A DNA stretch of 64,000 bases, taken from a virus. Its lineage: Duplodnaviria; Heunggongvirae; Uroviricota; Caudoviricetes. The position numbers and the translations under genes were made by a program. The first letter of the stretch is position 1. Every line of letters starts with the position of its first letter. Location: the IMG/VR virus record IMGVR_UViG_3300031344_000001; one strand, written 5' to 3'. Below are positions 33,461-60,887 of the stretch, piece by piece. The notes under the pieces were generated by a model that saw nothing but the letters and a program-made list of their open reading frames with translations, had not been told where the DNA came from and did not search any database.

Positions 33461-33702
33461 CGACTGGCGCCCGTACTTCGTGAAGGCGTGCGACCGACTC
33501 GACAACCTTCGCTCCATGGAGGGGTCCACCGTCGAGTTCCGTCGGAAGCAGGTGGCCGAGACCCGCGACAAATACTACCGGCTGTTCGACCGCATGGTCA
33601 CGCTGACTCCGGAGGAGTACCGCGACGGTGTCCGGCGCCTTCGCGAGCATGTCAGTCAAGCGGTCGCCGCAATCCCACTCGACTGAGAACTTGGAGCACG
33701 CT

Positions 33703-33999: not shown

Positions 34000-34171
34000 A
34001 CGCTGCGAGTTCTGTGGCAAGTTCGGCGCGCGACGCAACGTGTTCGATCGCGGGCCGAACGGTCACGGAGGACGTGACCTCCTCACATTCTACGAATGTG
34101 CGCGATGTGAAGCTAAGCGTCGATCGTCGACGCCCCCGGGTCCCCCGGGTCACCGAACACCCGACTCCTGA
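33989..34171 (+). CDS. Small zinc-ribbon protein
   Basis: CEFC..CARC. Confidence 0.45.
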   Translation: MPSERCEFCGKFGARRNVFDRGPNGHGGRDLLTFYECARCEAKRRSSTPPGPPGHRTPDS

Positions 34172-34333
34172 GCGCCACGGCGTGCCGGCGACGCCACGGC
34201 TAGGTGGCCCTGGCCCTGGCGCCGTCGTCTCTTGGAGGACTTACCGGGGGCATGGGACCGGTACGCGGGTTGCTACTCTTAGATTGCAGGCGACGCTGAG
34301 TCGCCACTGACCCTCGCTGAAAGGACCAACGTC

Positions 34334-34951
34334 ATGACCGTCACTGATACCGACACCACCACGAATCTCGAGGCTTCCCTCACCAAGTTGTCCGACACGA
34401 TCGCGCCGCTCGTCGCCGCGCACGCCGCTTCTGAGGAGGCCAAGACTGACGAGCTGGCCGCGCAGGTCGCGCTCGTGGCGCGGATCCTGGAGATCGCGCG
34501 CCCCGCCGTGCGCGCTCTCGGCTCGCGCCCCAAGACGTCCAACGACTACATCGCCGGGGAGGGCGACGTAGGATCGACGCGCGCGAGCTGGCGCGGGTTG
34601 ATCCTCACGTGCACGACGAAGGAGCTGGGGCCGTCGCGCGACAAGCTGCGCCGCGACGACAACGACGGCACCTACGAGGGCAGGGACGTGTTCCTGCGCG
34701 ATGACGGCCAGCTCGTCGAGTTGGCCTACTCCGGGTCGTGGAGTAACTGGCAGGGATCGCGCTGCGGCTGGACGACCGAGGAGCGGACGATCACCGTCGA
34801 GGCGTTCTGCCGGAATTGGGCAACGTCCGCGCCTGATCGTCTGGTCGTGCAGCTGCAAGCGCTCGCTGACGCGGCGGGAGATCGCGACAAGGTGACGAAG
34901 GTTTCGCGCGCGCGTGCCAGCAAGTACCGCGCGATCCTGGCGCTGCTGTAG
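34334..34951 (+). CDS. Hypothetical protein (205 aa)
   Basis: AAGGA RBS; follows an intergenic region with a GGGT-N8-ACCC site at 34147. Confidence 0.7.
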   Translation: MTVTDTDTTTNLEASLTKLSDTIAPLVAAHAASEEAKTDELAAQVALVARILEIARPAVRALGSRPKTSNDYIAGEGDVGSTRASWRGLILTCTTKELGPSRDKLRRDDNDGTYEGRDVFLRDDGQLVELAYSGSWSNWQGSRCGWTTEERTITVEAFCRNWATSAPDRLVVQLQALADAAGDRDKVTKVSRARASKYRAILALL

Positions 34952-34960
34952 GGGGGCGTC

Positions 34961-35134
34961 GTGACCGAGAAGCGCCAAGGACTCCCCGACCTGCCGTGCC
35001 CGCACTGCGGGCACGCCGACACGATCCCGTTGCGGAACTACGGCAGACCGATCGTTGGTGAGTCGCCGGGCACGTCGCGCTGGCAGTGCCTGGAGTGCAA
35101 GCACCAGTTCGACGGGCCCCTGGTGCGGCGATGA
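34961..35134 (+). CDS. Small zinc-ribbon protein (57 aa)
   Basis: CPHC..WQCLEC; translated manually. Confidence 0.5.
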   Translation: MTEKRQGLPDLPCPHCGHADTIPLRNYGRPIVGESPGTSRWQCLECKHQFDGPLVRR

Positions 35135-35349
35135 GGCGCCGTGAAGCCGTGTGGATCGAGGTGCGTGCCGCGGAGATCGCTGCGCAGATGGTCCACGAGC
35201 TTTGTCACGACATGACCATCGAGGAGGTCGTCGGCTGGATGCGCCGCGGAGACAACCGCGAGCGCGGGAGCTACCCGAAGTCGCCTGCGTGGCAGGCCGG
35301 TTGGCTGGCCGCGATCATCTGGGGCCACGAGCGTCGAGGTGAGCCGTGA
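35131..35349 (+). CDS. Hypothetical protein (72 aa)
   Basis: ATG 35131 coupled. Confidence 0.5.
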   Translation: MRRREAVWIEVRAAEIAAQMVHELCHDMTIEEVVGWMRRGDNRERGSYPKSPAWQAGWLAAIIWGHERRGEP

Positions 35350-35582
35350 AGCGCTGGGTGCGCGCGCAGCGTCACGGCTTCTGGCCGTTTGTCCGTTGTC
35401 CGTTCTGTCCGTCGCGTGGAGAGCAGGCGCTCAACGAGCTGATGCCGTGGTGCTCGACGTGCGGCTGCGAGTACCGGATCACGCCGCGCGGCGCCACGTT
35501 CGACCAGGCGCTCAAGACGCCGCGCTACGCCTGGGGTAAGGCGATCAACCTCGCGGGCGGCGTGAAGATCGGCAAGCCGTGA
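35346..35582 (+). CDS. Small zinc-ribbon protein
   Basis: CPFC..CSTC. Confidence 0.55.
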   Translation: MKRWVRAQRHGFWPFVRCPFCPSRGEQALNELMPWCSTCGCEYRITPRGATFDQALKTPRYAWGKAINLAGGVKIGKP

Positions 35583-40320: not shown

Positions 40321-40788
40321 ATGGAGCGGATCGTCTTGATCACCAACCTGCTCGACGTCTCTATCGACACGGGCTTCGGGAGCGTGCGCACGCCCACGAA
40401 CGCGCTCGTGCTCTCTGACCGTGGGCCCAAGGACGGAACGGGGGCGCGCTACCGCATGCACGGCTTTCACAACGAGGCCGGTAATCCGACGTTCGACCTG
40501 ACGCTGCCCTCGTTCGACTGGACGATCGAGGCGCAAACCTACCGGAGGTCCTTCGCGCTCTGCTTCGTCGGAAAGGTCCCGAAGATCATGCTCTCGACCG
40601 ACTTCGCGAACGATCTGCCGCTCGACATCGAGCGCATGGATCGCACGGACGTCGGATGGGCCGACGTCCTCCTGCGCAAGGTGCTTCGCTACTATCACGC
40701 GCCCTACATCGTGCTCGGGCAGCAGCTCGACGCGGATCGAGCGCGCGAGGTCCTCGGTGTCGAGAGCGTCGACGGGGCATCCCGATGA
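40321..40788 (+). CDS. Hypothetical protein (155 aa)
   Basis: ORF track. Confidence 0.6.
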   Translation: MERIVLITNLLDVSIDTGFGSVRTPTNALVLSDRGPKDGTGARYRMHGFHNEAGNPTFDLTLPSFDWTIEAQTYRRSFALCFVGKVPKIMLSTDFANDLPLDIERMDRTDVGWADVLLRKVLRYYHAPYIVLGQQLDADRAREVLGVESVDGASR

Positions 40789-41594
40789 GGGACCCCCTCG
40801 CGCTCTCCTACGGCATGGGCGTCGACTCGACCGCCGTGCTCGTCGGCTGGTGGCGGCGCGGCATCCGGCCGCACTGGATCGGCCACGCGCAGGTCGGCAA
40901 CGAGTGGCCCGAGACCTACGCGTACCGCCCCGTCATCGACGCTTGGCTCATCCAGGTTGGCTTCCCGACGATCACCGACGTGCAGTACGTCGTGAAGCGC
41001 CCCAAGCACGGGCACTACGCGACGCTCGAGGAGAACTGCCTGGTCAACCAGACGCTGCCGTCGCTCGCGTTCGGCTACAAGAAGTGCAGCCTCAAGTGGA
41101 AGGGTGAGCCGCTCGACGCCGCGTGCGCCGACTACTTCGCCGGCCATATCAAGGCGGGCGGCAAGGTCGTCCGCGCGATCGGCTACGACGCGGGCCCGTG
41201 CGACTCGCGACGCGGTGGCGTCGAGACCCAGGGCCCGTGGACGTGGGCCTACCCCCTGCGCGAGTGGGGCTGGGACCGCGACCGCTGCGTGGAGGAGATC
41301 GCCAGGGCGGGGCTGCCGGTGCCGCCGAAGTCGGCGTGCTGGTTCTGCCCCTCCACGAAACCCGCCGAGCTGATCCAGCTCGCGCGGCGGCACCCGGACC
41401 TCGCGCGCCGCGCCGTCGAGATGGAGGACCGGGCGCGCCCGGGGCTGACGAAGATCGAGGGCCTGTGGGGCACGGGCGTCAAGGGCACGCGCGGCGGTGA
41501 GAAGAAGCCCGGGTCGTGGCGCGTGTTCCTGACGGAGCACGCGCCGGAGGTGCTGCCGGAGCTGCCGCCGCCCGCGAAGAAGGACGCCGCGTGA
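40785..41594 (+). CDS. PAPS-reductase-like / PP-loop protein
   Basis: LSYGMGVDS, GNEWPETY, KKCSLKWK, AIGYDAG, YPLREWGWDRDRC, PPKSACWFCP; ATG 40785. Confidence 0.8.
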   Translation: MRDPLALSYGMGVDSTAVLVGWWRRGIRPHWIGHAQVGNEWPETYAYRPVIDAWLIQVGFPTITDVQYVVKRPKHGHYATLEENCLVNQTLPSLAFGYKKCSLKWKGEPLDAACADYFAGHIKAGGKVVRAIGYDAGPCDSRRGGVETQGPWTWAYPLREWGWDRDRCVEEIARAGLPVPPKSACWFCPSTKPAELIQLARRHPDLARRAVEMEDRARPGLTKIEGLWGTGVKGTRGGEKKPGSWRVFLTEHAPEVLPELPPPAKKDAA

Positions 41595-44280: not shown

Positions 44281-44985
44281 GTCGAGACCACGACGAGGTC
44301 TCGCATCGATTGCGCCGTTCTAGCTTTCTAGCTTGTTATGCAGGTACTTCTGTCGAGACCACAGCGCGGTTTCGCATCGATCGCGCCGGGCGCCGGGCGC
44401 CGAGCGCACCGGTCCCCACTCCGAGGTCGAGACCATCGCGAGGTCTCGCATCGAGCACGCCCGCTTCCGTGTCTCCTCTACGTCGAGACGTCGAGACCAT
44501 CGCGAGGTCTCGCATCTCTCGCAGCGCTTGCGCTGATCTGTGCGTCCGTGCGTCCATCCCTCTACGTCGAGACCACAGCGAGGTCGCGCATTTATCGTTA
44601 CGTGCTTGTGCTTGAGCGAGAAGCGAGAACGGTCCGGGGTCCGGGGTCCCGTGTCCTGTGTCCCGTTATCCGACGCCGACGCCGACGCCCGACGCCTTGT
44701 GGACTTTGTCGAGTGTCGAGACCCGAGACCCCAGTGAGGTCTCGCAGCGGTGATCTTCGTGCGCACGTCGTCTTCGAGACCACCGCGAGGTCTCGCATTG
44801 ATCATTGATCGCGCCAGGCACCAGGTAGCGGCTCTTCGCTCTCCGCTCTCCGTCTCCGTCGACTCAGCGATGATCCAGTCGAGACCACAGCGAGGTCTCG
44901 CATCGAGATCGCGTTGGCGAATCCACCGATTCACCTCAAGAACGTAAGCGTTGTCGAGACCACAGCAAGGTCTCGCATCGTTCGG
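44281..44985 (-). CRISPR. Degenerate type-A repeats (distal remnant of array A), about 9 copies
   Basis: GTCGAGACCAC(A/C)GCGAGGTCTCGCATCG variants at 44281, 44352, 44426, 44489, 44566, 44714, 44772, 44878, 44953. Confidence 0.85.
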
Positions 44986-45009
44986 CACTACACACTACAC
45001 GGTCAAGAA

Positions 45010-47922
45010 GTCTCGGTTGTTAACCAACCGAGCGGGTACGATCATAGGGTGTCCCTTAGAGCCTTAGACAGTGCAGTAGCTTCCTGTCTCAGCCGTCAAC
45101 CGGCTGAGCAAGTGCGACCAAGGGCCTCGGGCCTCGGGCTTGTGCCCCTCGGGCCTCGGGCCTCGGGGGTCGGGGAGAATGCACGGACTCCCACTCGTCT
45201 CGGGCGTCGACCGACCGAGCAAGTCTTGCGGTTTGCGGTGTGCCGGTGTGCCGGTGTGCCGGTGTGCCGTGTGCCGTTGCTCAAGTCCCGGTCGTCAACC
45301 GGCCGAGTGACCGAGTCTCATGGCACTGCGCTGTAATCCCCTTGCTGTCTCGGTCGTCAACCGACCAAGCAGGTACTCTCGCTACATGCACATGCGCGCA
45401 CTGGCACTCACTGACGTCAACCGTCCGTCTGAGCGTCTGAGCTGCAACAAGCTCAAGGCTGGTCTCGGACGTCAACCGTCCGAGCAGGCGCGATCACTCC
45501 GAAGCTCCGTAGGCATAGCTGTCTCGGACGTCGGACGTCAACCGTTCGAGCAGGTGTCGATCATCCGCACGAGTGTCGAGTGTCGAGTGTCGAGCGCAAA
45601 CTCGGGATTCTCTGTCTCGGACGTCAACCGTCCGAGCAGGTGCGATCACCTACCAGGGTGAGAGATGGAAACAATCTCCGTCTCGGGCGTCAACCGTCCG
45701 AGCAGGTGCGATCACTCTCATAGATCACGTGCTCCAGCCTCCAGCCTCCAGCCTCCAGCCTCCAGCCTCCAGACGTCGGATCAGGCTCGTCTCGGACGTC
45801 AACCGTCCGAGCAGGTGCGATCACCTGCCCCCCTGCCCCCCGCAGAGGCCGCAGAGGCGCAAGAACTCTCTCGCCAGTCTCGGACGTCAACCGTCCGAGC
45901 AGGTGCGATCACAGGCAGGTTCTCGCCTGGCTCCCGGCTCCCGGCTCCCGGCTCCACCTAACCAAGGTGTCTCGGACGTTAACCGTCCGAGCAGGTGCGA
46001 TCACCCGCTCGCTGAGCGTGAGCGTGAGCGGCCGATCGTAGCGGGTGTCTCGGACGTCAACCGTCCGAGCAGGTGCGATCACACGCGAGCATCGGGTGGC
46101 GCTGGCCCTCTCTAAACAATGCGTCTCGGACGTCAATCGTCCGAGCAGGTGCGATCATCTTCTGGACGCACGACGACAGATTCGGGATTCGGGTTGGCCC
46201 AGTCTCGGACGTTAACCGTCCGAGCCGCATCCCATGCGGCAGCGGCCCGATCCCTTGTCTCGGACGTCAACCGTCCGAGCAGGTGCGATCACCTCGCACG
46301 GGCGCGCGAGCCGTGAGGCCGTGAGCCGTCGATCGAGCTCAAGTCTCGGACGTCAACCGTCCGAGCAGGTGCGATCACTTGTGCGCGCGCATGCCGCGGG
46401 CGGCGGGCGGCGCGTGGTCTCGAACGTCAACCGTCCGAGCAGGTGCGATCACACGACGACGAATCAGCAGGCAAGGATAACTGCTGGTCTCGGACGTCAA
46501 CCGTCCGAGCAGGTGCGATCACAGGGGACGGACATCTTCGTGTTCGATCTTGGCACGCCTCGACCTCGAGCCACCTATAGTCTCGGACGTCAACCGTCCG
46601 AGCAGGTGCGATCACAAGCCACCCGCGACGCCTACGCGATGGAGCGTCGAGTCTCGGACGTCAACCGTCCGAGCGTCCGAGCAGGTGCGATCACACGCGC
46701 TGTACATCGGCCCCGGCGAGAAGTTCCGGTCTCGGACGTCAACCGTCCGAGCAGGTGCGATCACACGCGACCCGTGACCCGTTGCGCGAACGCGCGAACG
46801 GAACGGCCGGCTCCTCGTCTCGGACGTCAACCGTCCGAGCAGGTGCGATCACGCTCGGCGGCCAGCTGATCAGCACGCGCGATCGCTTGTCTCGGACGTC
46901 AACCGTCCGAGCAGGTGCGATCACAATTGGCGATCAGTTGCGCGCGGCTGCGCGCTCGTCTCGGACGTCAACCATCCGAGCAGGTGCGATCACCCGCAGT
47001 TCGGGCAGGGAGCGTCCTCAAAGATCTGTCTGTCTCGGACGTCAACCGTCCGAGCAGATGCGATCACCTTCGACCGGTAGCGCGAGCGCTCGGGTACTTG
47101 TGGTCTCGGACGTCAACCGTCCGAGCAGGTGCGATCACGCGTCTCGACGGGGTAGCGCACCGAAATGGTCCGGGTCTCGGACGTCAACCGTCCGAGCAGG
47201 TGCGATCACGAGGTCAGCCGGTGTCCCAAATGCGGCGCCTTCGGGTCTCGGACGTCAACCGTCCGAGCAGGTGCGATCACTTGTGACGCATGTGCTCGCG
47301 GCTGGCAGCACTCAGTCTCGGACGTCAACCGTCCGAGCAGGTGCGATCACAGGATCACGCGCGTCGCCTCGTTAATCAGTCCGTCGTCTCGGACGTCAAC
47401 CGTCCGAGCAGGTGCGATCATGCGAGAGCCGTGCCCGTCTGAATCACGATCTCCCAGCGTCTCGGACGTCAACCGTCCGAGCAGGTGCGATCACCGGCCG
47501 GGCGAAGCTTACCCGTTCAACTATCGAGTGTGGTCTCGGACGTCAACCGTCCGAGCAGGTGCGATCACAGGTGCCGCCTTTTGCTGCGTGTACAGGCGTT
47601 GGCTGTCTCGGACGTCAACCGTCCGAGCAGGTGCGATCACTCACCCATCGGACTGGCCAGTCCCTGGAGATCGGGTCTCGGACGTCAACCGTCCGAGCAG
47701 GTGCGATCACACGTCGTGACCGATCTAGCGATGACTAATCGGTTCGTCTCGGACGTCAACCGTCCGAGCAGGTGCGATCACCCTCGGCGCTGCGCGTAGC
47801 TGGTCTGCCCGTCTAGTCTCGGACGTCAACCGTCCGAGCAGGTGCGATCACTCGCAGCAGGCGATCCTCAAGCTGGCGCGGCCGATGTCTCGGACGTCAA
47901 CCGTCCGAGCAGGTGCGATCAC
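45010..47922 (-). CRISPR. CRISPR array B, about 39 x 36-nt repeats
   Basis: + strand GTCTCGGACGTCAACCGTCCGAGCAGGTGCGATCAC; minus strand GTGATCGCACCTG-CTCGGACG-GTTGA-CGTCCGAG-AC; ~34-37 nt spacers near 47.9 kb, degenerate toward 45.0 kb, so the leader is on the right. Confidence 0.97.
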
Positions 47923-48071
47923 CGGAGTTTCTTATTCAGTTGTCAAAGAAGGCACTTGCATCCTTCGATGCAGGCACCGGTAGCTTTACTCCACGCTCGT
48001 GCGTGTCGCGAGGGAGGACCCCTCTGAATGCTGCTGTACGGCCTGAGGTTTCGGGGGCGCATGAACCTCTT

Positions 48072-50009
48072 CTACGCGGCACGCCGCACCTGCGGCACCG
48101 GACCGCTCGACAAGCCGTGCCTGTGGAGGAGGTTGCGCGCGGCGTTCGCGTCCTGGTCCCAGGTCCGAATGCACGACGAGCAGGTGTGCTCGATCGAGGC
48201 TGCCGCGTCGAACGCCTCGACCGAGCCGCACCACGCGCACGCCTTGGTCGAGTCCGCGGCCTGCTCGGCCTCGACGCGGGCGCCGCGTTTGGGGGCGGCC
48301 TTGAGGATCTCGGCGCGAAGCTCGCCGGGAGCTGCAAGGCGGCTCATGCGGCGCTGCTCGCGCCCGTCGGACGGGTCGCCGTCCTCCGGCGCGGGCTGCT
48401 CCCAGCCGTCGACCTCGGTGAGCTTCATCGAGGTGTCGTGGTTCGACCCGCTCTCGATCAGGATCGTCGCGTAGCGGGCGGTGAGCTCGGCGGCGATCAC
48501 GCGCCACACCTCACGGCGGTGGGCGATCAAGCGATCGCGCTGGTGCTCCTCCCAGTTCTGGAGGTGTCGATCTTGGCGCGCCCACGCCTGGAGCACGGCG
48601 AGGATCGGACCGTCGCCGTCGATGCGGTTGGCCGTCGAGCCGAAGTCCGAAGGGTTGCACTTCTTGCCCTCGGCGCGAGCGACGCGCCAGGCGTCCCAGT
48701 CGATCCCAGTCCAAGCGTCGACGAGGGAGGCGAGCTTGCGGGGGGCGCGCCACTGCGCCAGGCTGCCGACGCGCTCGGCCATCCACGCGGGGGTCTCCCG
48801 GTCGAGCAGCCAGGCCGCGAGGCGGTCGCGCGCGGTCTCGAACTCCTTGTCGCGGATCGACGCCAGGTCGTGGACCTTGGCCATTCCCGTCAGCAGATCG
48901 TCGGGCACACGGATCTCGCGCTCGTGCCCGTGCTCGTCGACGAGGTAACCAACGCGCAGACCGACCTGCACGCCCTGGGCGTCGAACAGCCGCCGCCAGC
49001 CCAGGTCGATCGCGCAGGTCCCCTCGCCGATCGCCACCGGGCAGGCACGAAAGCGCTCGCTCTCGAGCGTGAGCTGGAACCTCCACTCGTAGTGACGGCC
49101 GACGCGCTTGCGCACGACGTACGCCCACTTGATCACCGCGTCCTTCGGGATGGGTCGGTGGAGGGTGAGGGGGAAGCGCGCGAAGATCGGCTTCCGGTCA
49201 GGGTGGCTGCCGACGCGCAGGTCGACGTACGTCCGTGCCGCGTGACGGCGCAGGTTGCGCGGGAGGCACGCGGCCTCCTCCCACGTGGCGCACGCTCCGA
49301 CCTCGGCGCGCGGGTGCTTGTCGGCGAGACCAGGGGTCCCCAGCCGGAGCCGGGAGTCCTGCTGCGACAGCAGCTCGCTGACGGTCATGCCGTAGATTCC
49401 CGGGGCGCCGTCGCGCGCGATGAGCTGCGTGCCGATCGATCCGGTCCCGTCGTAGCGCTCGAAGTGGAGCGGGCGCTTCGCCGTCTTGACGGCCTGCTTG
49501 ACCGAGTTCTCGACGCGGTCGTAGGTGCCGGTGCGCAGTCCTCGCTCGATGAAGGCGCGGCGGGCCTCCTTGCGGCGCAGCGCCGTGAGCGCGCGCGCGG
49601 CCTCGTAGCCCGGCTGGAGCTGCGCCGCGCGAGACGCCTTGGCCTCGCGCAGCTCCGCGCCGCACAGGGCGCGGAGGTCCTTGGCGCGGGCGAGCACCTC
49701 GCGCTCCGCCGTCAGGTCCGGGGCAGCGACGCCGGACTTCGCGGCCCGCAGGTCGTCGTAGGCGTCGTCGACGGCACCCGCCGCGTCCTCGTAGTCGCGG
49801 AGGGCCGCACCGACGATCGGATCCGCGAGCTGGACGCCGCGGAGGTCGTCCCAGAGCTTGTGCTCGATCTCGACGAGCGTGTTGCGGTACTGGTGCGCGA
49901 GGCGGAACTGCTCTTCGACGCGGTTCACCTCGGTGATCGGAGGCAGGCAGCGGTACGAGTAGATCCGGGTCGGGACGTCGGAAGTCTTCTTCCTGGGCTG
50001 TCGCGGCAT
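48072..50009 (-). CDS. cas12m: Cas12m-like (type V-U1/V-M) effector 1 with intact RuvC D-E-D triad (645 aa)
   Basis: RYDGTGSIGTQL, HRPIPKDAVIKWA.VVRKRVG, RuvC-I AIDLGWR, QWRAPRKLASL, RuvC-II ILIES, LAAPGELR, CAWC..CSSC zinc finger, RuvC-III WDQDANAARNLL; directly upstream of array B; ATG 50009 preferred over 50081. Confidence 0.85.
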   Translation of the reverse strand: MPRQPRKKTSDVPTRIYSYRCLPPITEVNRVEEQFRLAHQYRNTLVEIEHKLWDDLRGVQLADPIVGAALRDYEDAAGAVDDAYDDLRAAKSGVAAPDLTAEREVLARAKDLRALCGAELREAKASRAAQLQPGYEAARALTALRRKEARRAFIERGLRTGTYDRVENSVKQAVKTAKRPLHFERYDGTGSIGTQLIARDGAPGIYGMTVSELLSQQDSRLRLGTPGLADKHPRAEVGACATWEEAACLPRNLRRHAARTYVDLRVGSHPDRKPIFARFPLTLHRPIPKDAVIKWAYVVRKRVGRHYEWRFQLTLESERFRACPVAIGEGTCAIDLGWRRLFDAQGVQVGLRVGYLVDEHGHEREIRVPDDLLTGMAKVHDLASIRDKEFETARDRLAAWLLDRETPAWMAERVGSLAQWRAPRKLASLVDAWTGIDWDAWRVARAEGKKCNPSDFGSTANRIDGDGPILAVLQAWARQDRHLQNWEEHQRDRLIAHRREVWRVIAAELTARYATILIESGSNHDTSMKLTEVDGWEQPAPEDGDPSDGREQRRMSRLAAPGELRAEILKAAPKRGARVEAEQAADSTKACAWCGSVEAFDAAASIEHTCSSCIRTWDQDANAARNLLHRHGLSSGPVPQVRRAA

Positions 50010-50018
50010 CCGTGAATG

Positions 50019-50046
50019 GCTAACAGGATGATAGACGTTTTGCAAG
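50019..50046 (-). promoter_or_regulatory. 28-bp upstream element of effector 1 (putative promoter/operator)
   Basis: Minus strand CTTGCAAAACGTCTATCATCCTGTTAGC, identical at 60316-60343; TTGCAA-N17-TAGCCA would place +1 at about the ATG 50009. Confidence 0.7.
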
Positions 50047-50112
50047 GCTTCGTGACGGCGGTCCCCCTGGGACAGAGTCACTACCCCGGAGCGTACACGG
50101 CGTCCGATTCAC

Positions 50113-53100
50113 GTCGAGACCACTGCGAGGTCTCGCATCGATCGCGTGATCGCCTGTTGGTCGAGGTTTCACATCGATCGTGCCGCCTTGCCGTGCCAGG
50201 TGAGCAAGCGCTTGCACACGTCGAGACCACAGCGAGGTCTCGCATCGATCGCACCAACCTGAAATCGTCGGCGCCTTCATCCGGACGATTCGTCGGTCGG
50301 TTGAGACCACAGCGAGGTCTCGCGTCTCGCATCGATTGTGCCGAGAGTCGGCGCGGAGTTCTACGTTGACTTCTTCGGGTCGAGACCACCGCGAGGTCTC
50401 GCATCGATCAGGCCCGGCAATTTCATTGGCCGGAACTCCCAGTACCGGCTGGTCGAGACCACCGCAAGGTCTCGCATCGATCCCAGCCCAAATGTGAATC
50501 CGTCGAGACCACCGCGAGGTCTTGCATCGATCATCGATTGGGCCTCCCGCCCGCTCGCCAGCTCGCCGGGTTAGCAGTGGTCTCGACGAGCGGATCTACC
50601 GCGAGGTCTCGCATTGATCGTACCCCTTTTCCCTCGCCGTTTTCGCGGTCGTTGAGACCACTGCGCGCTGCGAGGTCTCGCAGCGATCGGGCCGAGCGGC
50701 CGAGCGGCCGAACGGAGCTGCCCCCAGCTCACGCGCTCGTAGGCTGATCGACCGGCTCGTCGAGACCGCCGCGAGGTCTCGCATCGATCGTGGCACTTCT
50801 TCGGGACCATACCCGTCACCTTGAGGAGAACTCGTCGAACCTCGTCGAGACCACCGTGGTCTCGCATCGATCGTGCCAATCGATTCGCGCAACGTCGATC
50901 GTGTCTGATTCGACGAGCTCGGGGCGAAGCGGTCGAGACCACAGCGAGGTCTCGCATCGATCATGCCTGTGGTGACGAAAAGGGCTGACAACGGTGACCT
51001 GTGGGTCGAGACCACAGCGAGGTCTCGCATCGATCGTGCGTCGGTGACTTGCTTCGATCGTGTCTTTGTCGGGGGCTTGCGCGAAACTTGGACCATGGGC
51101 AGTCGAGACCACAGCAAGGTCTCGCATCGATCACACCTGCGAACGGCGAGCTTCACAGTCAAGACGGCGCGCATTGATCTTGGCAGGCTTCAAGTTTCAA
51201 GTCCCTCGTGCGCCTTATCGTCCGTATCGTCGCGTTCTGGTCGAGACCATCGCGAGGTCTCGCATCGATTGCACCAGGGCTGCTCTGTGCCCTGGGGGCA
51301 TGCTCGGTGCTCGGCTGCTCGTCGAGACCCCTGCAAGGTCTCGCACTGACCGGAACTGATTCGCAACCACCTGTCGAGACCACCGCAAGGTCTCGCATCG
51401 ATTGTGCCGTTTGTACGTGAGGTTGATGAGGGGACGTCGAGAGTCGAGACCACCGCTCCTCATGGCAGCGTCGGGGTGGACCAACGACCAACGGTCGAGA
51501 CCACCGTGAGGTCTCGCATTGATCGTGCCCCCTTCTTGGGCCAGCAGGCGTCCTCCGTCAAGTGGTCGAGACCACAGCACAGCGAGGTCTCGCATCGATC
51601 GCGCCTCGATATCGCGCGGGCGCGCGGTGGTGGCTCAATGCTCAATGTTGTCGAGACCGTAGATGACCTGCGGCATTGCGGCACATTGAGCGTGGTCGAG
51701 ACCACAGCGAGGTCTCGCATCGATTGTGTCACTCGGCGATCTCGTTGTCCGTACCCCGTCGCCGCAGTCGAGACCACAGCGAGGTCTCGCATCGATTGTG
51801 CCCGACCTCGTGATTCGTGATTCGACGTGAGGATGGAGATCCCGGTGTCGAGATCTCGCGTCGATTGTGCCGTGGACGCCAAGTGGAGCGAGAGCCTTGG
51901 TAAAGCTGTCGAGACCACCGCGAGGTCTCGCATCGATCGTGCCAAGTAGGCTGCACATGAGTCGATGGCCGTTCGGCGTGTCGAGACCACCGCGAGGTCT
52001 CGCATCGATCGAGCTTGCGCACAGGTTTTCGAGACCACCGCGAGGTCTCGCATCGATCGTGCCGTGAAGACGTAGTCCCCGCGCGGCGGACTCGCATTGT
52101 CGAGACCACCGCGAGGTCTCGCATCGATTGTGCCCGTCAGCCCAAGCACCCTGTCGCGCTGGGAGTCGAGACCACCGCGAGGTCTCGCATCGATTGTGCC
52201 GCCTAGGCGCAGGCGTCTCACCTACGCAATCGCTAAGTCGAGACCACCGAGGTCTCGCATCGATCGTGCCGGGGGGCCGGGGATCGTCGACCGTCGGCCC
52301 AACTGCGGACAGTCTAGGCGAGACCACAGCGAGGTCTCGCATCGATCGTGCCCAGCGCTTGCTCGCTTCCTCTTCGCGCGCCGATGACGACGTGTTGCGG
52401 CGGTAACAGGTAACAGGTGCGCACCGGGTGTTTGGGTCGAGACCACAGCGAGGTCTCACATCGATTGTGCCCCGGCTAAGCTGAAGAACCGTGACCCCAA
52501 ACTACGGCGAGTCGAGACCACAGCGAGGTCTCGCATTGATTGTGCCCCGTGACCAGGCTCGAGTACGTCAGCTTCAGCACCGTAGGGTCGAGACCACAGC
52601 AAGGTCTCGCATCGATTGTGCCAGCCTCAGGCTCCGCGTCCTGCTATTCCCGTTCGTCCAAGTCGAGACCAGCGCGGTCTCGCATCGATTGTGCCACGTG
52701 CCACGCGAGCCGCATCCCAGCCGTCAGGGTGTCGAGACCACCGCGAGGTCTCGCATCGATTGATTGTGACGCCGTGCAGCGCGCCAAGAATCGGGGCGAT
52801 GCCAGTGTCGAGACCACCGAGGTCTCGCATCGATTGTGCCGTACCGCCGCGAGCGCGCCTTGACCGACGTAGAGCGTGTCGAGACCACCGCGAGGTCTCG
52901 CGTCTCGCATCGATTGTGCCGCGACACTCGCCGAAGTCGACCTCCGATCCCGACCCTGTCGAGACCACCGCGAGGTCTCGCATCGATTGTGCCTCCGCAC
53001 CGTGCGCTGCGCGCTTCGGTGTCGTCTGGTCGAGACCACCGCGAGGTCTCGCATCGATTGTGCCTGCCGGCCTGCCGGCCTGCCGGCATCGCGCCGACGT

Positions 53101-56100
53101 CGTGGACGTGGGCACACCCGTCGTCGAGACCCCCGCGAGCACAGCACCGATCGTCAACTGGTCGAGACCACCGCGAGGTCTCGCATTGATTGTGACCGCT
53201 CGGGTCACCCACCATCTGCCGTGACACGATCTTGTCGAGACCACCGCGAGGTCTCGCATCGATTGTGCCGACGGACGCGGACGTCGTCGAGAAATGTCGG
53301 CCCTTGTCGAGACCACCGCGAGGTCTCGCATCGATCATCGATCGTGCCTTGCCACGACTACGCATGTGGCTCGGCGGGTCTGCGCGTGGGGCCACACCTC
53401 GGACTGGTCGAGACCACCGCGAGGTCTCGCATCGATCATGCCGTTACCTGCTAAGACGGTAAGCAGGGAGGTCGTCGAGACCACTGCGAGGTCTCGCAGC
53501 GATCGTGCCCGTGAGGTCTCGCCCCTGCGACGTTGGGATCGGTCGTTGGTCGAGACTACCGCAAGGTCTCGCATCGATCGTGCCGCAACAGAATTCGTGA
53601 CGGCGCCGATACTCGGAGCGGTCGAGACCACCGCGAGGTCTCGCAGCGATCGTGCCCAGGCATCTATCAAGGCTACGCTTGCACGGGCGCTCGTCGAGAC
53701 CACCGCAAGGTCTCGCATCGATCGTGCCCTTTGCTGTCATGTGTCCTCTTCTTCCTTCTTCCTTGCAGGTTGTCGAGACCATCGCGAGGTCTCGCATCGA
53801 TCGTGCCGCGCGGTCGCGCCGTCGCGCGGGACGCGATGCTGTAGTCGAGACCACCGCGAGGTCTCGCATCGATCGTGCCGCTCGCGTAGCGAGGTGCCAA
53901 CGGCGTTCTTACGAGGTCGAGACCACCGCGAGGTCTCGCATCGATCGTGCCGCCCAGGAGCGTCAGAGTGTCGACCATTTCGCCGTGTCGAGACCACCGC
54001 GAGGTCTCGCATCGATCGTGCCGTTCAACCCGCACTCGGGCAAGCACAAGACGCTCGGTCGAGACCACCGCCGTGACGGATGAGCCTGTTGCTGTTGGGC
54101 AGGCCTACGTCGTATTGGTCGAGACCACCGCGAGGTCTCGCATCGATCGTGCCCTGGCTGTCCTTAAGACGAGGCCCCTATGGACCGAGAGTCGAGACCA
54201 CCGCGAGGTCTCGACCACATGGCTCCGGCTCTGGTCGAGACCACCGCGAGGTCTCGCATCGATCGTGCCGTCTCCACGTTCACGCCGCCCTCCCACGCGA
54301 GCCAGTCGAGACCACCGCGCGGTCTCGCATCGATCGTGCCGTGCCACGTGCCACGTGCCACAGCAGCAGCGAGCCCAGACTAGACAGTTCGTCGAGACCA
54401 CCGGGAGGTCTCGCATCGATCGTGCCAGTCGGTCGCTTGACCATGGCTAACCTCAAAAATGTGTCGAGACCACCGCGAGGTCTCGCATCGGTCGTGCCCT
54501 CGATACGGACCCGAGAAACGGAAACTGGTTTTTCAGTCGAGACCACCGCGAGGTCTCTCATCGATCGTGCCGGCCAAGTCTTCCTCGGTCGTCGAGCGCC
54601 CGCCGGCCTTGTCGAGACCGCCGCGAGGTCTCGCATCGATCGTCGATCGTGCCCTCTTGTAGACCCAGCCGTGTAGCCGATAGAGCTGCTTGTCGAGACC
54701 ACCGCGAGGTCTCGCATCGATCGTGCCGTCTCGTCGCTCGCCATGCTCGCCGGCACACCGAACCCGTCGAGACCACCGCGAGGTCTCGCATCGATCGTGC
54801 TCCCAGGCGAGCGAGTCGAGGTAGTCGCGGACCGGGTGGGTCGAGACCACCGCGAGGTCTCGCATCGATCGTGCCGCACGCGGGCGCGCGCTCGGTGTCG
54901 TTGACCGTTGACCGAGGAGGTCGAGACCACCGCGAGGTCTCGCATCGATCGTGCCGCCGTGCAATTGCGGACGGCCGATCTACTTCCGGTGGTCGAGACC
55001 ACCGCGAGGTCTCGCAATCGATCGTGCCGGTCGAGAGTGCGTGACCGAAAACACGGAACCGGAGGCTGGTCGAGACCACCACGAGGTCTCGCATCGATCG
55101 TGCCGTACAGGTTCGCCGTGGTGCCCTTGGGCGCACCGTAGTCGAGACTACCACGTCATAGCGGCCGTCGAGACCACCGCGAGGTCTCGCATTGATCGTG
55201 CCGCGACCTCGTCGAGGTGCCGCTCGTCGTTCATTCTTGTCGAGACCACCGCGAGGTCTCGCATCGATCGTGCCTTGCCTAGCCGCCGAGGCGTTCGGCG
55301 ACAAGACAGCGGGTCGAGACCACCGCGAGGTCTCGCATCGATCGTGCCGCGGCCGGGCAGGAGGGCAGGAAGTTGAACGTCGAGTCAACTTTGTCGAGAC
55401 CACCGCGAGGTCTCGCATCGATCGTGCCGAACGCCGAACACTGCTGAGCGGCAGGCGATACTCCTAGGGCAGTCGAGACCACCGCGAGGTCTCGCATCGT
55501 CGCATCGCTCGTGCCTGCAACGCGCGGTTCGCTCAGCGGGGGTTGGAGGTGGTCGAGACCACTGCGAGGTCTCGCATCGATCGTGCCCGCGACTCGTTCG
55601 TCGTTCGCCGCGTCGGCCGTAGTGCGCCGGGTCGAGACCACTGCGAGGTCTCGCATCGATCGTGCCACGCGCGCCAAGTCGGTCCAACTAAGAGCCCCAA
55701 TCGTTGTCGAGACCACCGCGAGGTCTCGCATCGATCGTGCCCAGCCGACCGAATTCGCCACTGCATTTACGACGCTGTGTCGAGACCACCGAGAGGTCTC
55801 GCATCGATCGTGCCGAACGCGGGCGCGTCGGGCTCGAGTTCGTTCCATTGGTCGAGACCACCGCGAGGTCTCGCATCGATCGTGCCGCGCGCATCGTGCG
55901 GCAAGCGTGCGGCAAGCGTGCGGCATGAGCTTGTCGAGACCGCCGCGAGGTCTCGCATCGATCGTGCCTTATCGTCGGACTTGCCGATCCCGAGCTGCCC
56001 TTTTGTCGAGATCACTAGGTCTCACATCGATCGTGCCGGTTATGGCGCCCTCGTTGTCGCAGTGCCCGTTCTCGTCGAGACCACCGCGAGGTCTCGCATC

Positions 56101-58007
56101 GATCGTGCCGATCGTCGACGTGGAACGTGGAGGCGCGTTGGCGCAACCGGAAGTCGAGACCACCGCGAGGTCTCGCATCGATTGTGCCCGTCGCGCGCTC
56201 GCCCGATATCGATGAGCCCAACGTGTCGAGACCACCGCGAGGTCTCGCATCGATCGTGCCGGGAAGTAGGCTGCACATGAGTCGATGGCCGTTCTGCGTG
56301 TCGAGACCACCGCGAGGTCTCGCATCGATCGTGCCGTCTAACGTGGCTGCTCACCGGAGCCGTGGTTCGCTGTCGAGACCACAGCGAGGTCTCGCATCGA
56401 TCGTGCCTCGGGAATTCCAAGACCTCCGTCAGCGGTTCCTCTCGTCGAGACCACAGCGAGGTCTCGCATCGATCGTGCCGGTGTCAAACGTGCGATGGAA
56501 CAGGCGGAGGTTTAGGTCGAGACCACCGCGAGGTCTCGCATCGATCGTGCCTGAACACGTTCTTGCCGTTGGCGCCTTCGCCATAATGGTCGAGACCACC
56601 GCGAGGTCTCGCATCGATCGTGCCGTTGTGCAGACACTTTGCCGTAACGACGCCGGTGTCGTCGAGACCACCGCGAGGTCTCGCATCGATCGTGCCGAAC
56701 GACTCGAAGGTCGCGACATCGACGCATCTGTCGTCGAGACCACCGCGAGGTCTCGCATCGATCGTGCCCGCGTGCGAAGCAGAGATGCCCTCGAGCAGTC
56801 GCTCGTCGAGACCACCGCGAGGTCTCGCATCGATCGTGCCGCTGCGCGACCGCGACGAAGCTCGTCGTCCTCATAGATGCTCACGTCACGTCGAGACCAC
56901 CGCGAGGTCTCGCATCGATCGTGCCACAGGAGTAGACACGGATCCACGGAGGAACCAATGGGTCGAGACCACAGCGAGGTCTCGCATCGACGACGTGATC
57001 GCCCGTTGGTCGAGACCACCGCGAGGTCTCGCATCGATCGTGCCAGGTCGGGCTGGACCTTGGCAGTCGAGACCGCTGCGAGGTCTCGCATCGATCGTGC
57101 CGAAAGCGGCCGGGTCGGGCGCGGGCGCGATCTGCGCGTCGAGACCCCCGTGAGGTCTCGCGTCTCGCATCGATCGTGCTGTTCAGGATCTCAGCCGCAG
57201 CGAGCGAGGTGTCTATGTCGAGATGTCGAGACCACCGCGAGGTCTCGCATCGATCGTGCCCAGCAACGAACCCGGGCTAGAGAGTTCGAACCCATGTCGA
57301 GAGTCGAGACCACCGCGAGGTCTCGCATCGATCGTGCCGATCGCCGCCGCGATTGAAGCAGCGCTCGTCTCTGGCGTCGAGACCACCGCGAGGTCTCGCA
57401 TCGATCGTGCCTGATCTGAGCGGCCTTGTCGATCGGCTCAAGGTCGAGACCACCGCGAGGTCTCGCATCGATCGTGCCGGCTCGGACGCATGACCAAGAG
57501 CGTTACGTTCGATGTGTCGAGACCACCGCGAGGTGCCATGACCTCACCATAGCGCGCCCGCGATCGTGCCGACGAACCCGAATTCCTCCGCCGAGGACAA
57601 TCCGTAGGTGTCGAGACCACCGCGAGGTCTCGCATCGATCGTGCCGGGGCTTGGGCTCGATCCGCGCTACACGATCTCGTCGTCGAGACCACCGCGAGGT
57701 CTCGCATCGATTGTGCCCGCCTGACGGTACGCCGCCGGGGCGGAGGGCTGCGTGTCGAGACCACCGCGAGGTCTCGCATCGATTGTGCCCTCGACCGTCT
57801 CGTGCCAGCCCTTCGGGATTCGCACGTCGAGACCACCGCGAGGTCTCGCATCGATTGTGCCCACTCTCGTGGTCTCGTGGCAATACCCACTCGACGTGCG
57901 TCGAGACCACCGCGAGGTCTCGCATCGATTGTGCCGCGCCGCTTGTCCGGTGGCGACCAGGACTTCAGGATGTCGAGACCACCGCGAGGTCTCGCATCGA
58001 TTGTGCC
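50113..58007 (-). CRISPR. CRISPR array A, about 105 x 36-nt repeats including partial copies
   Basis: + strand GTCGAGACCACCGCGAGGTCTCGCATCGAT(C/T)GTGCC; minus strand GGCACGATCGATG-CGAGACC-TCGCGGT-GGTCTCG-AC; variation mostly in the 7-nt loop; most regular near 58 kb, degenerate near 50-52 kb. Confidence 0.98.
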
Positions 58008-58028
58008 TTCGATTGTCAGAGAACGAAC

Positions 58029-58300
58029 CATGCTTATCCGGTTGTCACCCCTCGCGGGCGCGACGGATCTCCTTGATCTTTCGCTCGGCGCGCTTCGCAG
58101 AGGCTCGCCATTCAGCGAGAGCTTCCGTTGGGGTGAATTCTTGAATCGTTCCGCCGACGTTGATCACGGACGGTCGCTTGCCCAGAGAGGCGGAAAGAAG
58201 CTCGCCCATTTCGGAGCGGATGATTTTAAGTTCACGTTCGAGTCGCGATGCCATTTGATGTCTCCCTGATCACGTTTGGGGTGTTAACCGGATAAGCATG
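58029..58300. mobile_element. Mini gene cassette 2 (MITE/MIC-like) inserted in the CRISPR leader
   Basis: CATGCTTATCCGGTTGTCACCCC (58029-58051) and inverted GGGGTGTTAACCGGATAAGCATG (58278-58300); GAACGAAC direct repeat at 58021-58028 and 58301-58308. Confidence 0.85.
58045..58254 (-). CDS. Cargo ORF of cassette 2 (69 aa, helical)
   Basis: GGGAG RBS; TGA stop lies inside the TIR. Confidence 0.65.
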   Translation of the reverse strand: MASRLERELKIIRSEMGELLSASLGKRPSVINVGGTIQEFTPTEALAEWRASAKRAERKIKEIRRAREG

Positions 58301-58312
58301 GAACGAACGATC

Positions 58313-60268
58313 CTACGGCGTTGCGGGGCTCGGCGCGAGCGGCTGCTGGTCCTTCCGCCGGTTCCGCCGCGCCGGGGCCTTCTTCTTCGTCGAAGGTGCC
58401 GGAACCTTGGGGTCGAGCGGCCACCCGCTCTCGCCGCGCGCGACGGCGCTCGCGGCGGCGAGCAGGTTTCGGCTCATCGTGATGTCCTGGTCCTCGGCGT
58501 GGCCGCAGTTCTCGCAGCGGATCACCCGCTGCACCCGGTCTTCCCGCGAGACGTCGCGGTGGTGACCGCAGGCCGCGCAGTCGAGCGTCCCACCGGCAGC
58601 GTCGACCTCCAGGTCGACGCTGCCGTACTTCTTCGCGAAGTAGCCGACGCGGGCGCGGGCGCGCCCGGGCCCCAGGATGTTCACGCGGCGCGCCGTCTTC
58701 TTGCGCAGCTTCTGCTCGTCCTCGTCGTGCTGGTCGTCCTTCTCGACGAGGCCGGTCACGTCGAAGTCGTCGCGGGCGACGACCCCGTAGCGCTTGGCCA
58801 GCTGGACCGCGACCGCGGTGACGCGGCCCTCGACCTGGCGCTGCATGCGCTCGAGGCTCGGCACCTCGCGGTGGAGCAGGTGGACGTCCTGCTTGCTCCA
58901 CGCCTCCAGCGCCGCGAAGGCCGGCTGGTCGCCGTGGATGCGCTGGTCTCGCCACTGCCGGTGCAGGCGGACGTACTTGCTGGGGGCCCGCCAGTTGTGC
59001 ATGTGGCGGCTCTCTTCGCGGAGCCACGACGTCGCCGGCAGCGACCGGGCGTAGGCGAGGATCATGTCGCGGAGCACGTCCTGGTTCTGGTCGCGGATCG
59101 AATGGATCGAGTCGGCCCAGGGTTTCACACCGAGCACGTCCTCGGGGATCACGAGTTGCCCCCAGAGCGGGCTCGCGGGGTCGTTGGGGTCGAGTGGCGC
59201 GGTGGCGCTCCACGTGAGCAGGCGGATGCCCGCCTTCTTGCCCTCCTCGTCGAAGAGCTGACGCCAGCCGATGTGGACGGCGACCGCGTCGTGCGGGTGC
59301 GGGTGCGGGGTGGTCACGGCCACGGAGCCCTCGACCTCAAGCGTGAGGTACCAGCGGTAGCGGAGCCCGGTGCGCTCGCGCCGGACCACGGCCCACTTGA
59401 CGACGTCGTGCCCGAGCTGGAGGCGGTTCTTCGTGCGCGGGGACTGGTGCAGGAGCAGGTGCATCTGGGCCCAAATCGGGCGGATGGTGCCCGGCACAGT
59501 CCCGACGCGGATCGCGAGCGCGTGGAAGCGCTTGCCCTTCGTGGCGGCCTCTCCCGCGCGCGGCCCGATCTTGATGACGTCTCCCGGGTTCCCGGCGACG
59601 TCGATCGCGCGCCCCTCGGCGTCGACCGCGGCGGGTCGGAAGTGGTCGACCGGGGCACCCAGCGAGTACGCGACCGATCCGATGCGCAGCCAAGACCCTT
59701 CGCCGCCGATGAGATCGTCGGCGTAGACGGACTTCTTGGCGGGAAGTGTCTTGCCGGTCCGCGCGTCGATGCGCGCGTTCTGCCGCTGGAACTGGACGGC
59801 GATGCGGCCCACGTCCGGGGGGAAGTCCGTCCCCACGAACGTGGTCCGGCCGTTTTCGTCGATGAGCCCTGCCTTGTCGATCGTGCGCCGCGCGAAGTCG
59901 GCCGCGTCGTCCGCCTTGCCGAGCGTCCCCCACATGGCTCCCGCCTCGATCGTCGCGTCGCGCACGGCCTTGAGCGCGCGCTTCTTCCCCGCGAACACGC
60001 GCTCGCGGAGGGCCTTGAACTCGTCAGAGGCGTGCCACGCATCGCGGGCAGCTTTCCCAGCCTCCGACTTCCACCACGCGCCACGCGCTTCGACGGGTAC
60101 GTCCCTGGCCGGGTAGTCGATGAGCGCGCGCCGGAGGAAGCGCTCGCGGTTCTCGATGAGCGCGATCTGTCGGCGGTAGCGCGCGCCGAGGCGCACCTGC
60201 TCGCGCAAGCAATGGTCGTCGGCGGCCGTCGCCGGGAGACAGAGGAACTTGTACACGCGCATCGTCAT
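58313..60268 (-). CDS. cas12m: Cas12m-like (type V-U1/V-M) effector 2 with inactive-type RuvC H-D-D (651 aa)
   Basis: GRIAVQFQRQ, RuvC-I VAVHIGWR, NWRAPSKYVRL, WSKQDVHL, RuvC-II VVARDD, CAAC..CENC zinc finger, RuvC-III EDQDITMSRNLL; same H/D/D pattern recalled for MmCas12m; upstream of array A. Confidence 0.85.
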   Translation of the reverse strand: MTMRVYKFLCLPATAADDHCLREQVRLGARYRRQIALIENRERFLRRALIDYPARDVPVEARGAWWKSEAGKAARDAWHASDEFKALRERVFAGKKRALKAVRDATIEAGAMWGTLGKADDAADFARRTIDKAGLIDENGRTTFVGTDFPPDVGRIAVQFQRQNARIDARTGKTLPAKKSVYADDLIGGEGSWLRIGSVAYSLGAPVDHFRPAAVDAEGRAIDVAGNPGDVIKIGPRAGEAATKGKRFHALAIRVGTVPGTIRPIWAQMHLLLHQSPRTKNRLQLGHDVVKWAVVRRERTGLRYRWYLTLEVEGSVAVTTPHPHPHDAVAVHIGWRQLFDEEGKKAGIRLLTWSATAPLDPNDPASPLWGQLVIPEDVLGVKPWADSIHSIRDQNQDVLRDMILAYARSLPATSWLREESRHMHNWRAPSKYVRLHRQWRDQRIHGDQPAFAALEAWSKQDVHLLHREVPSLERMQRQVEGRVTAVAVQLAKRYGVVARDDFDVTGLVEKDDQHDEDEQKLRKKTARRVNILGPGRARARVGYFAKKYGSVDLEVDAAGGTLDCAACGHHRDVSREDRVQRVIRCENCGHAEDQDITMSRNLLAAASAVARGESGWPLDPKVPAPSTKKKAPARRNRRKDQQPLAPSPATP

Positions 60269-60315: not shown

Positions 60316-60343
60316 GCTAACAGGATGATAGACGTTTTGCAAG
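60316..60343 (-). promoter_or_regulatory. 28-bp upstream element of effector 2, identical to 50019-50046
   Basis: GCTAACAGGATGATAGACGTTTTGCAAG on the + strand; also lies just upstream of the divergent RHH gene. Confidence 0.7.
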
Positions 60344-60348
60344 ACGCA

Positions 60349-60522
60349 ATGTTCGAGCCGAAGCAACAAGCCGCGGAGAAACTCAGCCACTACATCGGTG
60401 CGCGCGTCACCGACACCGAAGAGTCGTGGCTCCGCGCCGAGATGAAGCGCAGAAAGATCACGATGAGTGACTTGATGCGCCTCGCGCTCGGCAAGCTCTT
60501 CGTTTCCAAGAAGACGGGGTGA
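60349..60522 (+). CDS. Ribbon-helix-helix-like regulator, divergent from effector 2
   Basis: YIGARVTDTEESWLRAEMKRRKITMSDLMRLAL resembles the CopG/Arc pattern; ATG 60349. Confidence 0.6.
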   Translation: MFEPKQQAAEKLSHYIGARVTDTEESWLRAEMKRRKITMSDLMRLALGKLFVSKKTG

Positions 60523-60887
60523 CCTTGGCGATCGAGTGCAAGGAGATGCACGAGTGGGCGTCGTGGCGTGACGAGTACACCCTCGCCGACGTCGAGAAGG
60601 CGCTCGCGTTCGCCGGCCTCAAGGGGTGGAAGTTCGACCACTGGTCCGACGGGGACGCGCAGTTCATGCACCCCGGGCCGGTGACGTTCGACGACCTCGC
60701 CAAGCTGCGGGTCACGTTCACGCCCCGGAGCATGGTCGTCGAGGCGGTCGTCGACCAGGACGCGGAGGACGAGCGGTTGGTCGCGTGGGAGCGCGCGGGG
60801 GCTAACCCGCTCGACCGTGGCGCCACGGCCTTGATGGTGCTGGTGACGATGAGCTGGAACGAAGTCTCCGACGCGGGGGCCGCCTGA
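60519..60887 (+). CDS. Hypothetical protein (122 aa)
   Basis: ORF track; coupled. Confidence 0.6.
   Translation: MTLAIECKEMHEWASWRDEYTLADVEKALAFAGLKGWKFDHWSDGDAQFMHPGPVTFDDLAKLRVTFTPRSMVVEAVVDQDAEDERLVAWERAGANPLDRGATALMVLVTMSWNEVSDAGAA

Follow-up and report, generated by a model that had tools for sequence, protein, structure and literature searches.

Two type V-M Cas12m effectors with separate CRISPR arrays in one locus of a likely huge soil phage

The Cas12m proteins are compact natural DNA binders that are in use for base editing, CRISPR interference, and epigenome editing. Their RuvC catalytic triads vary, with D-E-D, N-E-D, H-D-D, N-D-D, and others known (PMC10442227, PMC11013384). Bigelyte et al. 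2024 tested eight of these proteins, four with D-E-D, two with H-D-D, and two with N-D-D; all eight showed binding that depended on a protospacer-adjacent motif (PAM) and no detectable cleavage of double-stranded DNA, the purified D-E-D protein MsCas12m and the H-D-D protein GoCas12m cut neither target DNA nor target RNA and had no collateral activity, and a D274A RuvC mutation left the processing of CRISPR RNA precursors (pre-crRNA) intact (PMC11013384). The H-D-D site of Cas12m2 holds a single Mg ion that clamps the non-target DNA strand, and its conversion to D-E-D did not bring back cutting (PMC10442227). In the Cas12m2 crRNA, a G:A pair closes the helix and a histidine of the WED domain reads C(-1). 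Here we describe a locus with two such genes, each followed by its own CRISPR array, in a 64,000-nt stretch of DNA (the window; IMG/VR record IMGVR_UViG_3300031344_000001; 67% GC) that belongs to a 461,400-bp contig of an uncultivated rhizosphere-soil element 461 kb or more in length. Both proteins are effectors of the Cas12m family (type V-M, formerly V-U1), that is, new members of a known family, and they probably form two independent type V-M modules on a likely huge soil phage, both silencing by binding and serving as parallel guide channels.

The genes and arrays of the locus are all read from the minus strand. In order of descending coordinates they are cas12m-2 (58313-60268; P0002, 651 amino acids, with a CCCC zinc finger), array B (50113-58007), cas12m-1 (48072-50009; 645 amino acids), and array A (45010-47922). 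The open reading frame (ORF) of cas12m-1 extends to a GTG at 50081 (P0001, 669 amino acids, the numbering used below). Its start is most likely the ATG at 50009 because the public gene call P0003 begins there, because the N-terminus MPRxxRKKTSDVPTRIY is conserved in relatives, and because the longer ORF would contain the 28-nt element that is described below. An earlier note on this DNA had reported two effector ORFs of ~650 amino acids with colinear motifs, each directly upstream of a separate 36-nt repeat family, and this description held: both ORFs are intact (P0001, 48072-50081; P0002, 58313-60268), both proteins contain GWR(R/Q)LFD, WRAP, a CxxC...CxxC zinc finger, and DQD, and the two repeat families have the arm, stem, and AC layout that had been noticed. 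The GC content at third codon positions is 0.91 and 0.93 for the two cas12m genes, a strong coding signal; together with the conservation of the triads within their clades and an identical sequence in four metagenome runs, it makes both genes look functional.

The family assignment was drawn from profile, structure, and phylogeny comparisons, which gave a placement in Cas12m and not in TnpB or Cas12j. Searched against the PDB with phmmer, P0001 matched the solved Cas12m structure 23vw (E = 1e-64 over residues 41-652) and Cas12m2 (8HHL; 9e-26), and P0002 matched 23vw (1e-25) while having no sequence-search link to 8HHL. The PADLOC Cas12u1 (V-U1) model matched P0001 over its full length (1e-88, model positions 3-529 of 533) and was the top match for P0002 (1.5e-38). 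A PADLOC model labelled 'Cas12f' scored nearly as well as Cas12u1, so that these model names alone cannot tell the families apart. Structure was compared in Foldseek with an AlphaFold2 model of P0002 only (mean predicted local distance difference test score, pLDDT, 86). The top matches were Cas12m2 8hhl (E = 5e-27, template modelling (TM) score 0.62/0.68) and GoCas12m 8pm4, with TM scores for these two proteins of 0.61-0.75, whereas the top Cas12f match had an E of 6e-11 and a TM score of 0.37/0.53, TnpB had about 0.37/0.53, and Cas12f, TnpB, Fanzor, and Cas12j had scores of 0.2-0.4 by query. By these matches the P0002 model conforms to the Cas12m fold of a WED domain, a coiled-coil REC, and a RuvC with an inserted zinc-finger TNB, and the predicted fold separates Cas12m from Cas12f and TnpB where the model names do not.

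Other identities were tried and rejected. TnpB would be expected at ~400 rather than 645-651 amino acids; the TnpB model NF040570 gave 31 and 41 bits (31 for P0001) against a cut-off of 100, over the C-terminal part only, and CRISPR arrays stand in place of insertion-sequence ends and omega-RNA. For Cas12j, the Foldseek match of P0002 had an E of ~1e-7 and a TM score of ~0.29 (7m5o, 7odf) versus 0.62 for Cas12m2, and neither P0001 nor P0002 found Cas12j by sequence search; the fold match of P0002 to Cas12f was far weaker than that to Cas12m2. The suggestion that effector 1 is an intermediate between TnpB and Cas12m was not borne out, as P0001 is nested deep within the Cas12m tree, with the full-length Cas12u1 match and the low TnpB score already given. 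P0001 and P0002 are 25% identical and, by the phylogeny, fall in different deep branches of the family. P0001 is only ~29% identical to MsCas12m, and the tree separates the cas12m-1 clade, which is known almost solely from metagenomes, from that protein.

An alignment with 105 relatives confirmed the triad residues that the earlier note had named. P0001 has D-E-D (D359 in AIDLG, E543 in ILIES, and D644 in DQDANAA) and P0002 has H-D-D (H in AVHIG, D in ARDD, and D in DQD), both inside the range known for Cas12m. D-E-D is present in 69 close relatives of P0001, and a set of sub-clades in the same family (~20 proteins) has N-E-D, having lost the first Asp; in the P0002 group, H-D-D is found throughout (8/8). 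In the wider family, D-E-D was counted in 119 and H-D-D in 12 of 174 representatives. A 48-row IQ-TREE phylogeny placed the P0002 H-D-D group within a 17-row group (support 100) whose other members are nearly all D-E-D; P0107, the sister of the P0002 group, is D-E-D too. The Mycobacterium plasmid protein matching Cas12m2 at 6e-193 falls elsewhere among D-E-D proteins. Because the P0002 group nests among D-E-D proteins, apart from the Cas12m2-like protein, H-D-D arose at least twice in this tree, and the P0002 type is independent of Cas12m2. A single origin of H-D-D, in a joint clade with the Cas12m2-like protein, was rejected: joining both H-D-D sets costs 112 log-likelihood units (approximately unbiased test, p = 4e-52, for a group named after the tree had been seen). 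Membership of P0002 in the Cas12m2 clade (clade 2) was rejected as well, common descent with MmCas12m2 and GoCas12m not being found.

Array A consists of 37 copies of the 36-nt repeat GTGATCGCACCTGCTCGGACGGTTGACGTCCGAGAC (minus strand) and array B of about 107 copies of GGCACGATCGATGCGAGACCTCGCGGTGGTCTCGAC, likewise of 36 nt. Both are predicted to fold with a 13-nt 5' arm ending in G and a final AC, repeat A having an 8-bp stem and a 5-nt loop and repeat B a 7-bp stem and a 7-nt loop; the sequences of arm, stem, and loop differ between them at most positions. This layout agrees with that of the Cas12m2 crRNA, and both window families keep the WED histidine by which Cas12m2 reads C(-1). Exact copies number 24 in array A and 29 in array B, where a further 29 have one mismatch (~58 together). 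The repeats nearest each gene are near-perfect, and degeneracy grows with distance (in array B, towards 50113); the distal copies of array A are degenerate, with compensatory stem changes. Spacers are mostly 34-39 nt long (35-39 nt in array B; overall range 28-65 nt), and one occurs twice within array B. Over the interval 44281-58007, many repeats have short internal tandem duplications or truncations (e.g., at 50300, 51565, 52878, and 57138), and repeats and spacers become more irregular the farther they lie from the effector genes. On the far side of array A, a remnant of eight degenerate B-type repeats (44281-44988, also on the minus strand) includes the ACAGCG and ATCGCG loop variants common to distal array B repeats, which places the cassette of cas12m-1 and array A within what was once the tail of array B. 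The window was found to contain no reverse complement of repeat A or repeat B, i.e., no tracrRNA-like anti-repeat, and the window ORFs scanned included no Cas1, Cas2, or Cas4. Arrays of huge phages have a median of six repeats (PMC7162821), and the ~150 repeats here are unusual because phage arrays are usually as small as this, or as the eight spacers of phage MV-1.

Both effector types also occur in a relative, contig Ga0214473_10000008 (332,853 bp). Its D-E-D-type gene, P0022, is 62% identical to P0001 and has an array of ~45 A-type repeats (GTGATCGTACTTGCTCGGTTGGTTGACGACCGAGAC) with compensatory stem changes; its H-D-D-type gene, P0104, is 70% identical to P0002 and has ~50 B-type repeats (GTAGCAATCGATGCGAGACCTCGCACTGGTCTCGAC). 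The two cas12m genes of the relative are ~31 kb apart on opposite strands. The repeat of P0107, the D-E-D sister, has the same layout and ends in CTCGAC, as B repeats do. As judged from these arrays, the repeat family goes with the effector type, and both types have stayed together through considerable divergence. The relative and the window have no spacer in common, and array content has therefore turned over. Since the repeat handle, stem, and loop differ and the proteins are only 25% identical, the effectors probably do not share guides; they may also read different PAMs. Two orthogonal guide channels had been proposed in the earlier note, one for cutting and one for silencing: the pairing of effector and repeat that is kept in the 333-kb relative speaks for the channels, and the division into cutter and silencer found no support.

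A 28-nt element precedes both cas12m genes, with one copy at 60316-60343 upstream of cas12m-2 and an exact match at 50019-50046, 9 nt upstream of the likely cas12m-1 start (both on the minus strand). No such match is expected by chance, and the shared element suggests common regulation of the two genes. A divergent gene of 65 amino acids at 60325-60522 (+) begins inside the first copy, which covers its start codon and its first six codons. Like its homologue in the relative (L002 9795-9959, -), this gene has weak, sub-threshold matches to NikA-like (ribbon-helix-helix) proteins and may regulate the cas12m genes; at cas12m-1, the second copy is all that is left of it, as a truncated relic 9 nt from the ATG. 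In the relative, a related element and small gene precede only the D-E-D-type gene (L002), whereas the homologue there of the gene at 60519-60887, which adjoins the 65-amino-acid gene in the window, lies next to the H-D-D-type gene, on its upstream side. Because the element and small gene go with the D-E-D type there and the 60519-60887 homologue with the H-D-D type, the gene order indicates that a rearrangement fused two loci, by which cas12m-2 acquired the upstream region of a D-E-D-type gene. A 272-bp miniature element (58029-58300, minus strand) separates the cas12m-2 stop codon from the first repeat of array B. It has an ORF of 69 amino acids as well as terminal inverted repeats and an 8-bp target duplication, and it was unchanged in contigs of four metagenome runs. 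Its inverted repeats are shared with a miniature element at about 18819-19152; both have terminal inverted repeats of ~23 bp (CATGCTTATCCGGTT...) and an 8-bp target duplication, with different small ORFs. Were the 272-bp insertion removed, the first repeat would follow the cas12m-2 stop after only ~25 nt, and gene and array B were therefore probably co-transcribed. No sigma-70-type promoter, intrinsic terminator, Rfam family, or tRNA was detected in or around the locus.

The arrangement that we consider probable would work as follows. Each module would consist of a cas12m gene and then its own array, on the same strand and with no intrinsic terminator between them; each protein would process the transcript of its own array and load crRNAs composed of a repeat-derived hairpin handle ending in AC and a guide. 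For both effectors the most likely action would then be to bind target DNA next to a PAM and leave it uncut, as we infer from the tested members of the family, and such binding would stop competing mobile elements, or the host, from being transcribed or replicated. The outcome would be two parallel silencing channels with about 140 guides (~35 and ~105 spacers), under the common regulation of the shared 28-nt element. Some points weigh against silencing by both effectors from a working locus on a phage, and these are given below with the alternatives on which they bear.

The earlier note had assigned cutting to effector 1 for its intact triad and had called effector 2 catalytically dead. Neither description fits the family: D-E-D is its commonest triad (119/174) and the four tested D-E-D proteins do not cleave double-stranded DNA, so that an intact triad does not predict cutting, and H-D-D is in Cas12m2 a working, Mg-dependent site for the non-target strand. 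It is therefore unlikely that cas12m-1 is an active RNA-guided DNA nuclease or nickase and that only cas12m-2 is confined to binding, even though D359, E543, and D644 are intact and the triad is conserved in 69 close relatives. Omura et al. 2023 did suggest that D-E-D clades might hydrolyse DNA, but Cas12m2 with H-D-D changed to D-E-D still does not cut (PMC10442227), and purified MsCas12m has neither cis nor trans activity (PMC11013384). Within the P0001 family itself, the first Asp has been lost in the ~20 N-E-D proteins, and the triad is therefore dispensable in that lineage; further, 23vw, the nearest solved homologue of P0001, is also D-E-D (AIDLG, LEEF, and DQD in the alignment), yet it was deposited as 'CRISPR-associated DNA-binding protein Cas12m'. 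Because P0001 is so distant from the tested MsCas12m (~29% identity) and keeps D-E-D in those 69 relatives, some RuvC-dependent chemistry may nevertheless occur in its clade. A broader proposal, that a lineage of huge soil phages carries two non-interchangeable effectors with a shared control element and large libraries, of which the D-E-D effector nicks or cuts and the H-D-D effector has given that up, has a low probability; if it were true, a phage could destroy some of its targets and reversibly silence others. That there is one channel only, both effectors sharing guides and the duplication adding dosage or PAM range, is very improbable. The common 36-nt layout of arm, stem, and AC, the G...AC features around the stem, and the WED histidine for C(-1) kept in both proteins would suit it, but the handles, stems, and loops of repeats A and B differ at most positions, the effectors are only 25% identical, and in the relative each effector type, at 62-70% protein identity, has kept its own repeat family with compensatory stem changes.

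For none of the ~136 spacers was a protospacer found. Neither array matched any of 50,697 phage records (megablast), and the 136 spacers had only chance-level matches of at most 22 nt to the rest of the window and the loci of relatives (blastn-short). Exact 22-mers of the newest array B spacers were absent from metagenome contigs, and those of the newest array A spacers from viral contigs. When 4.2 kb of array B was searched against 401 genomes of one phylum (that of a Polyangiaceae metagenome-assembled genome), BLAST matches of 30-40 nt at 80-93% identity were obtained; as candidate targets, these were judged to be chance, mostly involving GC-rich low-complexity spacers or overlapping repeats. 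The mean spacer GC of 64% is near the 67% of the element and so points to high-GC targets. Parts of the arrays may be inert, because their ends are degenerate, the spacers are irregular (28-65 nt), and no cas1, cas2, or cas4 was seen in the window. There is a step from this to a decaying relic in which the arrays, and perhaps one effector, are out of use as rearrangement debris in an element unable to acquire spacers, and that step would take in the truncated repeats, the mobile element inserted between cas12m-2 and array B, and the nesting of the two cassettes, as well as the adaptation genes missing among the ORFs scanned. We find it quite doubtful, in that both ORFs are intact with a strong coding signal and conserved catalytic-site and zinc-finger residues, the ~58 B repeats within one mismatch and the 24 exact A repeats are all nearest the genes, array content has turned over with respect to the relative, and the locus is identical in several samples.

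A huge soil phage is the most likely carrier of the two putative silencing modules. The window has genes for IF3, three PAPS-reductase-like proteins (phrog_424), a phage-type helicase (phrog_16), an ATP-grasp protein, and a ComM-like ATPase, lying among dense small ORFs of unknown function and with no tRNA. We take the setting as phage-like because of the IF3, PAPS-reductase-like, and helicase genes among those small ORFs, because the contexts of relatives are similar, and because species genomes have both protein families only at 33% identity or below. No virion gene was seen in the window, and the element may on that account be a megaplasmid instead. The IF3 gene is full-length at 20201-20944 (-), with Pfam IF3_N and IF3_C (phrog_9787). 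PAPS-reductase-like proteins are typical of phage DNA-modification modules; the three here (DndC-like) are at 16122-17330, 27790-28923, and 40656-41594 (+), within 25 kb, and suggest elaborate DNA modification by the element.

Element DNA was found in at least 14 rhizosphere metagenome runs; the cas12m-2 region was identical in four of these, with no spacer variation, and the locus was found in no RNA run among the runs searched. Close relatives of both proteins are almost all from metagenome assemblies, with two NCBI records. A search of IMG/VR for relatives found neither protein and neither repeat, 185,579 species genomes (GTDB) had only relatives at no more than 33% identity, a repeat-B scan of JGI contigs returned only the one 333-kb contig, and a plasmid collection contained no near-identical DNA. 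A 199-kb plasmid of Candidatus Manganitrophus (CP114559.1) has two Cas12m-like genes ~18 kb apart, at 15162-16844 and about 33690-35550, one with Asp and the other with His at the RuvC-I position; no obvious array was present in the 700 nt downstream of either gene. Seven relatives of P0001 of ~810 amino acids (P0062, P0068, P0069, P0074, P0075, P0077, and P0080) have a Pfam PF03050 (IS66-family transposase) match plus TNB, which may reflect an insertion or a false match to a coiled coil.

What makes the locus of interest is the conserved dual arrangement with cognate repeats, together with the shared upstream element, the convergent H-D-D, and the very large arrays. If the orthogonality is true, a co-resident pair with distinct crRNA handles would be a candidate for two-channel regulation in one cell. 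That H-D-D has arisen from D-E-D a second time, independently, suggests the substitution to be a favoured route to tight binding, and an intact D-E-D triad is not evidence of cutting in the Cas12m family. With ~150 repeats, far above the usual phage array, and no adaptation genes in view, the locus also prompts one to ask how arrays of this size grow.

The systems closest to cas12m-2 are Cas12m2 (MmCas12m, from Mycolicibacterium mucogenicum; 8HHL, 8HHM, and 8HIO) and GoCas12m (8PM4) of V-M clade 2, which have the same fold as modelled cas12m-2 and share its H-D-D. They and the window systems are alike in their 36-nt repeat, with a hairpin flanked by G and A and then C(-1), in the single crRNA, in the lack of adjacent adaptation genes, and in the expected PAM-dependent binding and silencing. 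They differ in that the H-D-D group of cas12m-2 is nested among D-E-D proteins, with D-E-D in its sister P0107, and in that Cas12m2 and GoCas12m occur on Actinomycetota plasmids or chromosomes whereas cas12m-2 is on a huge phage-like element. For cas12m-1, the comparison is with MsCas12m (Allomeiothermus silvanus plasmid pMESIL02) and 23vw, with which it shares D-E-D, domain order, and the zinc finger; at ~29% identity MsCas12m is in a separate clade, and the tested D-E-D members bind DNA and do not cut it. TnpB (IS200/IS605) and the nuclease-dead TldR repressors have in common with the window proteins a RuvC with an inserted TNB zinc finger (PF07282) and RNA-guided recognition, but the window proteins have a REC lobe and CRISPR arrays and score 31-41 bits against the TnpB cut-off of 100. 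Among phages, Cas12j (CasPhi) and the V-U variants of huge phages likewise combine an effector and an array without Cas1, Cas2, or Cas4 in large genomes, and such compact type V systems are presumed to act against competitors or the host (PMC7162821); MvCas12m of myxophage MV-1, from a system of the same make-up, is also a D-E-D Cas12m on a phage, with eight spacers (bioRxiv 10.64898/2026.09.14.751636). Unlike these, the window locus combines ~150 repeats with a tandem pair of divergent effectors, and the modelled fold of P0002 matches Cas12j only weakly (TM score ~0.29).

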